Both the position numbers and the translations under genes were made by a program. This document shows, piece by piece, positions 5,890 through 17,456 of a DNA stretch of 64,000 nucleotides. Each line of letters starts with the position of its first letter. Positions within the stretch are counted from its first letter, which is position 1. Under the pieces are notes generated by a model. It made no database searches, had not been told where the DNA came from, and was given only the letters and a program-made list of their open reading frames with translations. Source of the DNA: Escherichia coli (GTDB taxonomy: Bacteria > Pseudomonadota > Gammaproteobacteria > Enterobacterales > Enterobacteriaceae); NCBI RefSeq assembly GCF_003334405.1, contig NZ_QOWM01000007.1, one strand, 5' to 3'.

Positions 5890-6008
5890 TTCCTGCCACG
5901 TAAGCCCCTCATCGGGCACTAAAACAGCAATACAAAAATATAACCCTCTGTAAATTACAGGGCATGGTGAGCGGCTTCGCTATGCCCAAAATCTGGAGAA
6001 AGCTCGCT

Positions 6009-7301
6009 ATGGATATTCCCGTTAATGCAGCAAAGCCGGGGCGTCGGCGTTATCTGACGCTGGTGATGATCTTTATTACGGTAGTCATTTGTTATGTCGA
6101 CCGCGCCAACCTGGCCGTGGCTTCCGCCCATATTCAGGAAGAGTTCGGCATTACCAAAGCGGAAATGGGCTATGTATTTTCGGCCTTCGCCTGGCTTTAT
6201 ACGCTATGTCAGATCCCCGGCGGTTGGTTTTTAGATCGCGTAGGTTCTCGCGTGACTTATTTTATTGCGATATTTGGCTGGTCAGTGGCGACTTTATTCC
6301 AGGGCTTTGCCACGGGCTTAATGTCATTAATTGGTCTGCGCGCGATAACCGGTATTTTCGAAGCGCCTGCTTTCCCGACCAATAACCGGATGGTGACCAG
6401 CTGGTTCCCGGAACATGAACGCGCTTCTGCCGTTGGTTTTTATACGTCTGGTCAGTTTGTCGGTCTGGCGTTTCTGACGCCGCTGCTGATCTGGATTCAG
6501 GAGATGTTGAGCTGGCACTGGGTGTTCATTGTCACTGGTGGTATCGGCATTATCTGGTCGCTGATTTGGTTTAAGGTTTATCAGCCGCCGCGCCTGACCA
6601 AAGGTATCAGCAAAGCTGAACTGGATTACATTCGTGATGGCGGCGGTCTGGTGGATGGTGATGCGCCGGTGAAGAAAGAGGCGCGTCAGCCGTTAACAGC
6701 CAAAGACTGGAAACTGGTGTTCCATCGTAAACTGATCGGCGTTTATCTTGGGCAATTTGCGGTGGCTTCTACACTGTGGTTTTTCTTAACCTGGTTCCCG
6801 AACTATTTAACCCAGGAAAAAGGAATCACGGCGCTGAAAGCAGGCTTTATGACCACGGTGCCATTCCTCGCGGCGTTTGTCGGCGTCCTGCTCTCTGGCT
6901 GGGTAGCGGATCTGCTGGTACGTAAGGGCTTTTCACTGGGCTTTGCGCGTAAAACGCCGATTATCTGCGGCTTGCTGATCTCCACCTGCATTATGGGCGC
7001 TAACTACACTAACGATCCGATGATGATTATGTGCCTGATGGCGCTGGCATTCTTCGGTAACGGTTTTGCTTCGATTACCTGGTCGCTGGTTTCTTCTCTG
7101 GCACCGATGCGCCTGATTGGTTTAACCGGCGGCGTGTTTAACTTCGCCGGTGGTCTGGGCGGCATCACCGTTCCGCTGGTGGTGGGGTACCTGGCGCAGG
7201 GTTACGGTTTCGCACCTGCACTGGTTTATATCTCCGCCGTCGCGTTGATTGGCGCGCTCTCTTATATCCTGCTGGTGGGCGATGTGAAGCGCGTTGGCTA
7301 A
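6009..7301 (+). CDS. dgoT: D-galactonate:H+ symporter (MFS)
   Basis: ORF 5964..7301 trimmed to [15 protein letters not shown]... (430 aa); multi-helix hydrophobic MFS-type protein. Confidence 0.9.
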
Positions 7302-8362
7302 TCCTTCAACTGTGGAATATGTGCCACACCACTGCGCATAATCCACTTTCTTAAAGCCGGTGCGGTCAGGCATCGGCTTTTTACTATCTTGCCGAAGAGT
7401 TTTAAACGCAGTTTGCGGGTGGCGCGCCAGTAAGCGGTATTGAGCTTCTCTGGCTGCTTCAGTAACACCGAACGCAGAATGTCTGTGCTATCCAGCGCAT
7501 AGCTAATCCCCTCCAGCGAGCTGGCGCTGATAAATCCCGCCGCTTCACCAATCAGAAAGGCGTTGTCCTTACCGCAGACAAAATCCTGCCAGCGCGAGGG
7601 AAACAGCACCGTGCATTTTTCGCTTTTCACCGTCTTACCAAACTGGAACTGAAAGGCGCTCATTTTCTCTTTCAGCGTCGTGAAACGCGTCTGACCGTCT
7701 TTCATTGGATAGGCACCGCCAAAGATAAAATAACCGTCTTTGCTGATACTCCATGAATAACAGTTAGTTATCGAATTATCAAAGATGCAGGAGTAGAACG
7801 GCACCGGATGTTTCTCCGCGAACCACTGCTGGATAGCGACATATTTACGGATTTGATGATCCGGGTAGAGATGTCGCCGCACCATCGAGTTTGCGCCATC
7901 GGCACCGACCAGATAGCGGGCGGTAATATGTTGCTCCCAGCCGTCTGCACGAAAAATGACATGCCATTTATCATCCTCACGCCAGATTTTTCGGCACAGG
8001 CTGTCGTGATAAACCTCAACGCTGGCGGGGATCAGCGATTTCATCCACAAGTCGAAAGCATGGCGATTAATATTGATATAGCTTCGCTGGTAGTTACGCT
8101 TGAGCGATGCGGCGACGTCGACGGTTTTGACGCTGAAAATCTGCGGATTAGCGATCACATCGACAGGAAGCGTCAGCCCATCGCGAATAAAAGATCGCTG
8201 CGCGTCCGGTGCCAGCAGACCGCCGCAGGGTTTGCTGAAACCTTCAGTACCACACTGGTGCTTTTTATCCAGCGCGATCACCTGCATTTTGCCTGCTAAC
8301 TTTCGTGCCAACGCCGATCCTGCCGGGCCGAGGCCAATAATCGCCACGTCGAAATGTTCCAT
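7298..8362 (-). CDS. cbrA: FAD-dependent oxidoreductase CbrA (colicin E2 tolerance protein)
   Basis: ORF 7298..8383 trimmed to [19 protein letters not shown]... (354 aa); N-terminal GxGxxG dinucleotide-binding motif; start could also be 8383. Confidence 0.85.
7355..7382 (+). terminator. Terminator-like hairpin after dgoT
   Basis: gccggtgcggtcaggcatcggc stem followed by ttttt. Confidence 0.45.
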
Positions 8363-8426
8363 CTTTTCACTCACATTCATCACGATGGCAAAAGACTATT
8401 GTCTGAAAGTGAAGTCCTTGTGAAGT

Positions 8427-9677
8427 ATGATGGCGGGACCCGTTTTGTATCAGGACCGCGCCATGAAACAGATAACCTTTGCTCCCCGTAATCACCTGCT
8501 CACCAATACCAATACCTGGACGCCCGACAGCCAGTGGCTGGTATTTGACGTGCGTCCTTCTGGCGCGTCGTTTACCGGCGAGACCATTGAGCGTGTGAAT
8601 ATCCATACCGGCGAGGTCGAGGTTATCTATCGCGCGTCACAGGGCGCACACGTCGGCGTGGTGACCGTTCATCCGAAGTCAGAGAAATATGTTTTCATCC
8701 ACGGCCCGGAAAATCCTGATGAAACATGGCATTACGACTTCCATCATCGGCGCGGAGTGATTGTTGAAGGCGGCAAGATGAGTAACCTTGATGCGATGGA
8801 TATTACCGCGCCGTATACGCCAGGAGTGCTGCGCGGCGGCAGCCATGTGCATGTCTTTAGCCCGAACGGTGAAAGGGTGAGCTTTACCTATAACGACCAT
8901 GTAATGCATGAACTCGATCCGGCGCTGGATTTGCGAAACGTCGGTGTTGCTGCGCCGTTTGGCCCGGTCAACGTACAAAAGCAGCATCCGCGTGAATACA
9001 GCGGTAGCCACTGGTGCGTGCTGGTGAGCAAAACCACGCCCACGCCACAGCCTGGCAGTGATGAAATCAATCGTGCTTATGAAGAAGGATGGGTAGGAAA
9101 TCACGCGCTGGCATTTATTGGCGACACACTTTCGCCAAAGGGCGAGAAAGTGCCGGAGCTGTTTATCGTTGAGTTACCGCAAGATGAAGCTGGCTGGAAA
9201 GCGGCAGGTGATGCGCCGTTAAGCGGAACGGAAACAACCCTGCCCGCGCCACCGCGTGGCGTCGTGCAGCGACGTTTAACCTTTACCCACCATCGGGCTT
9301 ATCCGGGGTTAGTCAACGTCCCGCGCCACTGGGTGCGCTGTAATCCGCAGGGTACACAAATCGCGTTTTTAATGCGAGATGATAACGGCATTGTGCAACT
9401 GTGGCTTATCTCGCCACAGGGCGGCGAGCCGCGCCAGTTAACCCATAACAAAACGGATATTCAGTCTGCATTTAACTGGCATCCGTCAGGAGAATGGTTG
9501 GGCTTTGTGCTGGATAATCGAATTGCTTGTGCCCATGCGCAAAGCGGCGAGGTTGAGTATTTAACCGAACACCACGCCAATTCACCTTCTGCGGACGCCG
9601 TGGTCTTCTCGCCGGATGGTCAGTGGCTGGCGTGGATGGAAGGCGGCCAGCTGTGGATCACCGAAACTGATCGCTAA
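8427..9677 (+). CDS. yidR: Uncharacterised protein YidR (DUF3748-like)
   Basis: 416-aa ORF recognised as YidR; true start may be the second ATG at 8430. Confidence 0.85.
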   Translation: MMAGPVLYQDRAMKQITFAPRNHLLTNTNTWTPDSQWLVFDVRPSGASFTGETIERVNIHTGEVEVIYRASQGAHVGVVTVHPKSEKYVFIHGPENPDETWHYDFHHRRGVIVEGGKMSNLDAMDITAPYTPGVLRGGSHVHVFSPNGERVSFTYNDHVMHELDPALDLRNVGVAAPFGPVNVQKQHPREYSGSHWCVLVSKTTPTPQPGSDEINRAYEEGWVGNHALAFIGDTLSPKGEKVPELFIVELPQDEAGWKAAGDAPLSGTETTLPAPPRGVVQRRLTFTHHRAYPGLVNVPRHWVRCNPQGTQIAFLMRDDNGIVQLWLISPQGGEPRQLTHNKTDIQSAFNWHPSGEWLGFVLDNRIACAHAQSGEVEYLTEHHANSPSADAVVFSPDGQWLAWMEGGQLWITETDR

Positions 9678-9678
9678 A

Positions 9679-10011
9679 TCAGTTATCAGGCATTCTGGCC
9701 GGTGGAATAACCGCATTGGTGGCTTGCGCGTTGGCTTCGCTTTTTTCAACGCGCGAGCGCACCGAGCTGTCTTTGCGGAACACATCCCACGGCAGTAAAA
9801 GCGTGTCCATCACAGCGGTAAACGGCATATCGAGAATCGCCAGCGACTTAGTGCCCCAGTTGGTTTCATCGTCGCCAATCATGGTTGCGCTGGCGCGGGT
9901 GCCGGGATACGTTCCTTCTTTCCCTCCGGTATGGGACATCACGCTGGAGCATCCTCCGAGTAATGTCATTCCGCTGCATATCATGAACGCTAACAACACA
10001 TTTCTTATCAT
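9679..10011 (-). CDS. yidQ: Predicted lipoprotein YidQ (DUF1375)
   Basis: ORF 9679..10086 trimmed to MIRNVLLAFMICSGMTLLGGCSS... (110 aa); lipobox LLGGC. Confidence 0.8.
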   Translation of the reverse strand: MIRNVLLAFMICSGMTLLGGCSSVMSHTGGKEGTYPGTRASATMIGDDETNWGTKSLAILDMPFTAVMDTLLLPWDVFRKDSSVRSRVEKSEANAQATNAVIPPARMPDN

Positions 10012-10185
10012 AATAAATTCATCTGTTGATCGTGGGTGTTGGCCTGATGAGTTATAGCGATCCCTTGCTGAAAATAACATCATCATTACGTCGCACTGTG
10101 GCGGCTATCGCACTTTAACGTTTCGTGCTGCCCCCTCAGTCTATGCAATAGACCATAAACTGCAAAAAAAAGTCCGCTGATAAGG

Positions 10186-10214
10186 CTTGAAAAGTTCATT
10201 TCCAGACCCATTTT
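10186..10214 (+). promoter_or_regulatory. Sigma-32 heat-shock promoter of ibpAB
   Basis: CTTGAAA (10186-10192), 14-bp spacer, CCCATTTT (10207-10214), matching the sigma-32 consensus CTTGAAA-N13-15-CCCCATnT; about 100 bp upstream of ibpA. Confidence 0.65.
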
Positions 10215-10316
10215 TACATCGTAGCCGATGAGGACGCGCCTGATGGGTGTTCTGGCTACCTGACCTGTCCATTGTGGAAGGTCTTACATTCTCGCTGATT
10301 TCAGGAGCTATTGATT

Positions 10317-10730
10317 ATGCGTAACTTTGATTTATCCCCGCTTTACCGTTCTGCTATTGGATTTGACCGTTTGTTTAACCACTTAGAAAACAACCAGAGC
10401 CAGAGTAATGGCGGCTACCCTCCGTATAACGTTGAACTGGTAGACGAAAACCATTACCGCATTGCTATCGCTGTGGCTGGTTTTGCTGAGAGCGAACTGG
10501 AAATTACCGCCCAGGATAATCTGCTGGTGGTGAAAGGTGCTCACGCCGACGAACAAAAAGAGCGCACCTATCTGTACCAGGGCATCGCTGAACGCAACTT
10601 TGAACGCAAATTCCAGTTAGCTGAGAACATTCATGTTCGTGGTGCTAACCTGGTAAATGGTTTGCTGTATATCGATCTCGAACGCGTGATTCCGGAAGCG
10701 AAAAAACCGCGCCGTATCGAAATCAACTAA
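10317..10730 (+). CDS. ibpA: Small heat-shock protein IbpA (alpha-crystallin family)
   Basis: 137-aa [20 protein letters not shown]... recognised as IbpA; Shine-Dalgarno aggag at 10303-10307; the ORF-track start at 10311 is an upstream TTG. Confidence 0.95.

Positions 10731-14135: not shown

Positions 14136-17456
<3,321 letters not shown>

Follow-up and report, generated by a model that had tools for sequence, protein, structure and literature searches.

cbrA, yidR, and yidQ are three adjacent genes in a 64,000-nucleotide stretch of the Escherichia coli contig NZ_QOWM01000007.1 (hereafter the window), where they lie between the dgo operon and the heat-shock genes ibpAB. The RefSeq annotation was moved onto the numbering of the window (window = locus + 999) and read against the list of open reading frames (ORFs). 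dgoT, which encodes the D-galactonate transporter and is the final gene of dgoRKADT, occupies positions 5964-7301 on the plus strand. cbrA (formerly yidS) occupies 7298-8362 on the minus strand and encodes a protein of 354 amino acids with the RefSeq name "colicin M resistance lipid reductase CbrA". yidR occupies 8463-9677 on the plus strand, with the start given by PGAP, and encodes a DUF3748 protein of 404 amino acids. yidQ occupies 9679-10011 on the minus strand and encodes a DUF1375 (YceK/YidQ) lipoprotein of 110 amino acids. dgoT, cbrA, and yidQ are given by both the ORF list and RefSeq. A preliminary description of the region had grouped the three genes as poorly characterised, and the identities, order, and strands that it gave agree with the ORF list, the RefSeq annotation, and the junction sequences. 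At the junctions, dgoT and cbrA converge with a 4-nt overlap in which the stop codons themselves overlap, cbrA and yidR diverge, and yidR and yidQ converge so closely that 1 nt separates their stop codons. A 3.3-kb query spanning the trio was 100% identical to K-12 (MG1655) records and reached at least 80% coverage in 5415 of 5426 complete E. coli genomes.

Eighty species-level Enterobacterales loci with 10-kb flanks were fetched via YidR, and twelve E. coli proteins were mapped onto them. The arrangement yidR(+) yidQ(-) ibpA(+) ibpB(+) was found in 79 of the 80 loci, from Escherichia to Serratia, Yersinia, Erwinia, and Mixta, and the single exception was a contig end. The synteny check that had been proposed for the three genes thus keeps yidR and yidQ together and separates cbrA from them. 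In about 19 loci (Escherichia, Citrobacter, Pseudocitrobacter, and a few others), cbrA stood next to yidR and pointed away from it, and in five (L021, L030, L032, L037, and L039) it was divergent from dgoR at the opposite end of dgo. In the remaining loci, cbrA was not found within the fetched sequence and may lie elsewhere in the genome. Judging by the five loci with cbrA beside dgoR, the slot between yidA and yidR can hold cbrA and the dgo operon side by side in either order. The stop codon of dgoT lies about 54 bp before yidR on the same strand in approximately 30 genera, while in loci without dgo, yidA or another gene is directly upstream of yidR. The yidA-yidR interval is a variable slot, and cbrA is among its movable occupants. 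An ancestral dgo-yidR operon, which the 54-bp spacing had brought to mind, was downgraded because yidA or other genes stand at the same distance where dgo is missing. The yidR-yidQ-ibpAB order was not seen at the YidR homologues examined outside Enterobacterales and is most simply explained as inherited gene order. On this view, yidR and yidQ have long formed a fixed convergent pair beside ibpAB throughout Enterobacterales.

The tight spacing of the genes had been taken as a sign of shared regulation, and this proposal is not supported. The three genes alternate in strand, which leaves no co-transcription and gives three transcription units, and synteny splits the trio. E. coli RNA-seq data place both yidQ-yidR and cbrA-dgoT among the convergent pairs whose transcripts overlap (PMC12288877). 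There is no room for a terminator at either convergent junction and the transcripts overlap, so the tight spacing points to antisense overlap and not co-regulation. It is very likely that cbrA, yidR, and yidQ are three independent, separately transcribed E. coli core genes that form no functional module. The observation of the trio is real, yet it concerns three already known, functionally unrelated genes. Its discovery value is little, as all three are annotated K-12 core genes and cbrA, which has the most interesting biology, already has a mechanism. Its value is corrective: cbrA is neither uncharacterised nor a colicin E2 gene, and the trio is not to be handled as a unit.

cbrA and the divergent region it shares with yidR

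CbrA matched the NCBIfam equivalog model NF008519 over its full length with 685 bits (cutoff 303). It also matched TIGR02032, the geranylgeranyl-reductase family model, with an E-value of 3.6e-33 and 115.5 bits, which is under the curated cutoff of 158.8 and places CbrA on a divergent branch of that family. The N-terminus carries the GxGxxG motif of an FAD fold. These matches bear out the description of CbrA as an FAD-type oxidoreductase. No close solved structure was found for CbrA, and the best match was a Baeyer-Villiger monooxygenase with an E-value of 4e-5.

CbrA had been described as known only for colicin E2 tolerance, which confuses it with CbrC: the colicin M gene is cbrA, whereas tolerance to colicin E2 belongs to cbrC (PMC3599342). 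cbrA is positively controlled by CreBC and is induced by colicin M (log2 4.3) alongside creD, cbrB, and cbrC (PMC3599342). Cells that overproduce CbrA owe their resistance to a saturated alpha-isoprene unit in C55-P and in lipids I and II, which colicin M then cannot hydrolyse (2021 review PMC8469651, citing Barreteau et al. 2020). The statement that none of the three genes has an assigned biochemical function is consequently out of date for CbrA, to which saturation of the lipid carrier is assigned (PMC8469651), and it stands in so far as yidR and yidQ are still poorly characterised. On this evidence, CbrA would act as a CreBC-activated, FAD-dependent reductase: it would saturate the alpha-isoprene in undecaprenyl phosphate and in lipids I and II and so protect them from cleavage by colicin M.

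Within the trio, regulatory DNA is shared only in the 100-bp divergent region between cbrA and yidR. An exact CreB-binding site (cre-tag), TTCACAAGGACTTCAC, lies in it at 8409-8424 on the minus strand, 47 nt 5' of the cbrA ATG. The cre-tag consensus TTCACnnnnnnTTCAC (PMC3660660) has one exact match in the window against 0.13 expected. A cre-tag was found 40-50 nt upstream of cbrA wherever cbrA sits, including the genera in which cbrA is beside dgoR. The site moves with cbrA to its other position, so it is a feature of cbrA and not of the trio. As a movable occupant of the yidA-yidR slot, cbrA would bring along its own promoter with an exact cre-tag.

A consensus scan of this region gave two candidate sigma-70 promoters, and both are consensus matches only. 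The candidate cbrA promoter, TTCACA-18-AATAGT, is at 8395-8424 on the minus strand, and the first half of the cre-tag supplies its -35 hexamer, an overlap that is arranged like a pho box. The candidate yidR promoter, CTGAAA-17-TATGAT, is at 8403-8431 on the plus strand, and 16 of its 17 spacer bases are covered by the cre-tag on the opposite strand. The block CCTGAAAGTGAAGTCCTTGTGAAGTATGAT is nearly invariant across Escherichia, Citrobacter, and Pseudocitrobacter. From this layout, CreB binding could switch cbrA on while hindering yidR.

Three side observations concern the same region. cbrA together with its cre-tag was seen beside dgoR in Superficieibacter, Phytobacter, Kosakonia sp. S29, and Enterobacter sp. 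BIGb0383. In Salmonella enterica subsp. arizonae, an exact cre-tag (L014:1732-1747) and the promoter block persist 5' of yidR, and no cbrA remnant is detectable at the site; in place of cbrA there are genes that resemble those for cytochrome c maturation, as judged by their N-terminal sequences only. Finally, a weak terminator-like hairpin at 8246-8262 on the plus strand lies inside cbrA and antisense to it. This hairpin could restrict read-through from dgoT into yidR. If it occurs, read-through of this kind might account for the correlation of yidR with dgo expression that has been published.

The yidR start codon and the hairpin upstream of yidR

Two start codons have been used for yidR. The ATG at 8427 opens an ORF of 416 amino acids and leaves a gap of 64 bp to cbrA, while the PGAP start at 8463 gives 404 amino acids and a gap of 100 bp. 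The peptide stretch MMAGPVLYQDRA belongs to the long form that starts at 8427. The family-wide YidR alignment begins at MKQITF, which is the 8463 start, and most enterobacterial YidR orthologues are 408 amino acids long. Most Citrobacter have in-frame stop codons between the upstream ATG and the equivalent of the 8463 start. A Shine-Dalgarno-like AGGA is located at 8452-8455 on the plus strand, 7 nt 5' of the ATG at 8463. The candidate -10 element TATGAT (8426-8431) overlaps the ATG at 8427, which would therefore be outside the mRNA if this element is used. Older annotation, which underlies the 416 or 415 amino acids of many database entries, probably places the start 36 nt too far 5'. The gap of 64 bp that had been reported between cbrA and yidR requires the 8427 start, and the comparative data favour 8463 and hence 100 bp.

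At least 35 of the 80 loci have a GC-rich hairpin 4-12 nt 5' of where yidR starts; almost all of these loci have no cbrA beside yidR, and the hairpin is present in most genera without cbrA at this position. It lies on the sense strand, some 5-45 nt 5' of yidR in loci among L015-L081 (an example is L024:7581-7607), and was recognised by sequence comparison. Its usual form is TACCCTGATGCG-loop-CGCATCAGGGTA, with a folding energy of -17 to -31 kcal/mol. The hairpin begins about 15 nt past the stop codon of whichever gene is upstream, and its 3' arm holds and thereby buries the AGGG Shine-Dalgarno sequence of yidR, to which the AGGA of E. coli is homologous. E. coli retains the 3' half only, GTATCAGGAC, at 8446-8456 of the window.

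The pairing was examined in 38 sequences. Of the cells in the alignment, 94.5% pair, against 29-41% with a slid partner, and three pairs change on both sides. The covariation score was 0.141, compared with 0.055 in shuffles, and none of 500 shuffles reached 0.141. In addition, 14 cells hold G-U or U-G, which would not pair on the other strand, and this indicates that selection acts on the hairpin in the sense RNA. In a few species, the hairpin is followed by a run of T and looks like a terminator. The hairpin is not included in Rfam. A dispersed, REP-like repeat was rejected as an explanation, as the hairpin occurs exactly once per fetched locus and always just before yidR. The yidR-upstream hairpin is a candidate for a conserved regulatory RNA and a modest lead.

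YidR, YidQ, and their possible roles

YidR matched Pfam PF12566 (DUF3748) with an E-value of 8.6e-58 over the whole model, which agrees with its earlier assignment to DUF3748, and this was the only Pfam domain found. The same model matched all 51 aligned members of the YidR family. A library-wide search gave 187 clusters (50% identity) with E <= 1e-30, and the family ranges over Enterobacterales, Planctomycetota, Bacteroidota, and green algae. The relatives in AFDB, from Planctomycetota, Bacteroidota, Armatimonas, and prasinophyte algae, are all uncharacterised. In the alignment of 51 members, R96, G121, G125, G126, and Y143 are invariant and R124, H128, H130, T142, D145, R158, and R271 are near-invariant. 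The resulting family motifs are G-A-L-R-G-G-[ST]-H-x-H and T-Y-x-D. From this conservation, it can be inferred that R-G-G-[ST]-H-x-H and T-Y-x-D would form a ligand- or metal-binding site.

The AlphaFold2 model of YidR (pLDDT 97.1, pTM 0.94) is all-beta, with strands over residues 25-401 and two short helices. The top Foldseek matches in PDB were TolB, DPP-IV, S9 peptidases, a lasso-peptide isopeptidase, and tricorn. The family profile matched the PD40 blades of TolB and S9 peptidases in PDB at about 1e-11, and no close solved structure exists among these matches. The structure prediction and fold search that had been proposed for YidR thus returned a clear answer: YidR is confidently predicted to be a stand-alone, seven-bladed beta-propeller of the PD40 class with its own conserved site. 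As a DUF3748 propeller family with an invariant His/Arg/Tyr motif, it is a modest lead.

The role of this propeller is approached from growth and expression data. In one metabolomics study, a yidR knockout grew poorly on gluconate and galacturonate and had a metabolite profile like that of dgoT, and the top expression correlates of yidR included dgoT, dgoD, dgoR, and dgoK (PMC5293155). The nearest non-enteric YidR homologue, P0124 (49% identity), adjoins a GFO/IDH/MocA oxidoreductase, a BNR protein, sulfatases, and a fucosidase. Among the five distant homologues whose neighbours were inspected, only P0124 was in a carbohydrate-degradation context; the other four were on short metagenomic contigs and were uninformative. 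The best guess, and a tentative one, is that YidR has a cytoplasmic role in the catabolism of acidic sugars (aldonates and uronates).

The conserved H128-x-H130 pair also permits a narrower enzymatic proposal. The enzymes of PL22 are cytoplasmic propellers that hold Mn2+ by a ligand pair HxH, and YidR could by analogy be a PL22-like cytoplasmic lyase for unsaturated or oligomeric uronates in which H-x-H binds Mn2+ at the centre of the propeller. The near-invariant histidines lie in the most conserved motif of the family with conserved Arg, Tyr, and Asp nearby, and the poor growth of the knockout on galacturonate (PMC5293155) fits such an enzyme. However, monomeric galacturonate requires no lyase, and the poor growth on gluconate is not explained by a uronate lyase. 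Pfam Pectate_lyase22 was matched by 0 of the 51 family members. The PL22 oligogalacturonate lyase (3C5M) has no sequence-profile relationship with YidR, and Ogl was neither among the top 50 Foldseek PDB matches nor among the top 60 listed profile matches in PDB. PL22 membership was rejected at the sequence-profile level, and a PL22-like activity of YidR is very unlikely.

The cellular location of YidR bears on another published view. In vaccine papers on Klebsiella and enterohaemorrhagic E. coli (EHEC), YidR is presented as an adhesion factor associated with the surface and as an ATP/GTP-binding protein. These papers call it a conserved virulence factor that mediates hyperadherence or adhesion, pick it as a surface-associated antigen, and report protection of mice. 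The enterobacterial N-terminus, MKQITFAPRNHLLTNTNTW, has no hydrophobic signal sequence and no lipobox. Several distant YidR homologues carry lipoprotein or signal peptides, which makes their absence from enterobacterial YidR informative. The Walker A motif [AG]x4GK[ST] is present in neither the 404- nor the 416-amino-acid form, and the model is a compact, soluble propeller. The hyperadherence label was presumably derived from a subsystem named after the neighbouring yidE. A surface-exposed adhesin that binds ATP or GTP, as described for Klebsiella, is therefore most improbable. The legacy names "ATP/GTP-binding protein" and "TolB" are unsupported by the sequence of YidR. YidR is used as a vaccine antigen on the assumption of surface exposure, and the sequence does not support this assumption.

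YidQ, the second member of the fixed pair, matched NCBIfam NF008628 with 211.9 bits (cutoff 91) and Pfam PF07119 with an E-value of 1.5e-8. It has a signal peptide and the lipobox L-G-G-C, in which Cys21 is encoded at 9949-9951. Across 28 YidQ orthologues, C21-S22-S23 is invariant, and MxH, G37-T38, and the hydrophobic helix LDMPFTAVMDTLLLPWD are conserved. The earlier description of YidQ as a small lipoprotein is borne out by the DUF1375 family matches and the invariant lipobox cysteine. Lipoprotein sorting generally follows the residue at position +2, and under this rule the serine of YidQ at this position suggests sorting to the outer membrane. YidQ has been detected in the outer-membrane vesicles of a tolA mutant. 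The product of yidQ is a small DUF1375 lipoprotein that probably sits in the outer membrane. Its structure model is helical and of low confidence (pLDDT 67, pTM 0.38), so that the prediction proposed for YidQ was obtained but was too poor for meaningful fold matches. A sequence search of PDB with YidQ gave nothing significant.

The fixed position of yidR and yidQ beside ibpAB raises the alternative that their location is functional. YidR and YidQ would then form an envelope or proteostasis stress unit with IbpAB, in which YidR is a propeller that binds peptides or unfolded proteins, in the manner of TolB or of the propellers that gate S9 peptidases, and YidQ is a stress-induced lipoprotein. 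The conservation of the order in 79 of 80 Enterobacterales species speaks for this, and yidQ and yidR have been listed as sigma-E-regulon genes induced 3 h after a stress shift. It has also been reported that overexpression of yidQ cuts viability and that RamA and SoxS of Salmonella bind the ibpA/yidQ intergenic region. In contrast, no HSP20 or DUF1375 gene was called beside the YidR homologues examined outside Enterobacterales, and the linkage may be inherited order. YidR has neither a peptidase domain nor a signal peptide. No canonical sigma-E promoter (GAACTT-N15-18-TCNNA) was found near yidQ or yidR, and neither gene is mentioned in the main text of the Rhodius sigma-E regulon paper. The tables of colicin M envelope stress include ibpB, but not yidR or yidQ (PMC3599342). 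Such a stress unit is unlikely.

Taken together, the comparative data allow a joint reading, which is possible but doubtful. In most Enterobacteriaceae, yidR may be expressed solely by way of the hairpin (about -20 to -30 kcal/mol). In Escherichia and Citrobacter, the cbrA promoter and its cre-tag may have replaced the 5' arm, which would free the ribosome-binding site and put a CreB site inside a new yidR promoter, and the DUF3748 propeller would have a cytoplasmic acidic-sugar role. If this is true, a gene insertion would here have rewired regulation, and the "surface" vaccine antigen YidR would be intracellular.

Several points weigh against the account given here. All loci were chosen through yidR, so the counts cover yidR-bearing loci only. 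The region scanned for promoters holds 2 sigma-70 consensus matches against a shuffled expectation of 3.3, which is no excess. The mechanism of CbrA is taken from the summary of Barreteau 2020 in a review (PMC8469651). The link between YidR and sugar acids comes from a single high-throughput study, and the adjacency of dgo and yidR is weaker than it appears because the yidA-yidR slot takes varied inserts. The relatives of YidR at the sequence level are peptide-handling propellers and its fixed neighbours are heat-shock genes, and both favour a stress unit with IbpAB. Two papers also label yidQ and yidR as sigma-E regulon genes.

Neighbouring features and comparison with known systems

Beyond the trio, ibpA starts at 10317 on the plus strand (RefSeq), and the sequence between yidQ and ibpA, at 10012-10316, is their divergent control region. 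The ROSE-type RNA thermometer of ibpA lies at 10251-10323 on the plus strand (Rfam RF01832, 100.4 bits; also a RefSeq feature), and Rfam gave no other above-threshold match between 7000 and 10500. An almost palindromic sequence, CTTGAAAAGTTC (10187-10198), forms the -35 region of the ibpA heat-shock promoter. Read on the yidQ strand it is GAACTTTTCAAG, which includes the sigma-E-like GAACTT, and no suitably spaced -10 was seen. A defence-system reading of the trio was rejected, as none of its three proteins matches PADLOC. Further along, two RefSeq pseudogenes lie 3' of yidP at 14136-16300 of the window (L001:13137-15301), namely a PTS IIB gene interrupted by a stop codon and a hypothetical gene that has a frameshift. 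This stretch looks like the known glv region of K-12.

When compared with known systems, the cbrA gene is the same as that of the known E. coli CbrA (YidS), the colicin M resistance lipid reductase, with 100% identity to K-12 and no differences. The two convergent pairs are like excludon-type pairs in that their stop codons are 1 nt apart (yidR/yidQ) or their ends overlap by 4 nt (dgoT/cbrA) and their RNA-seq transcripts overlap. They differ in that no evidence was found for mutually exclusive expression or RNase III processing at either pair. YidQ is a named member of the YceK/YidQ (DUF1375) lipoproteins and shares their conserved lipobox and hydrophobic helix.

YidR stands further from its structural relatives. 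Unlike the S9 and DPP-IV peptidases, it has no alpha/beta-hydrolase domain, and its matches span the propeller parts of these peptidases only. Unlike TolB, it has neither a signal peptide nor an N-terminal alpha/beta domain, and it scores 17 bits against TIGR02800, for which the cutoff is 343. In comparison with the PD40 propellers of S9 peptidases, DPP-IV, TolB, and tricorn, the family-specific DUF3748 region with RGG-x-H-x-H and TYxD is YidR's own.

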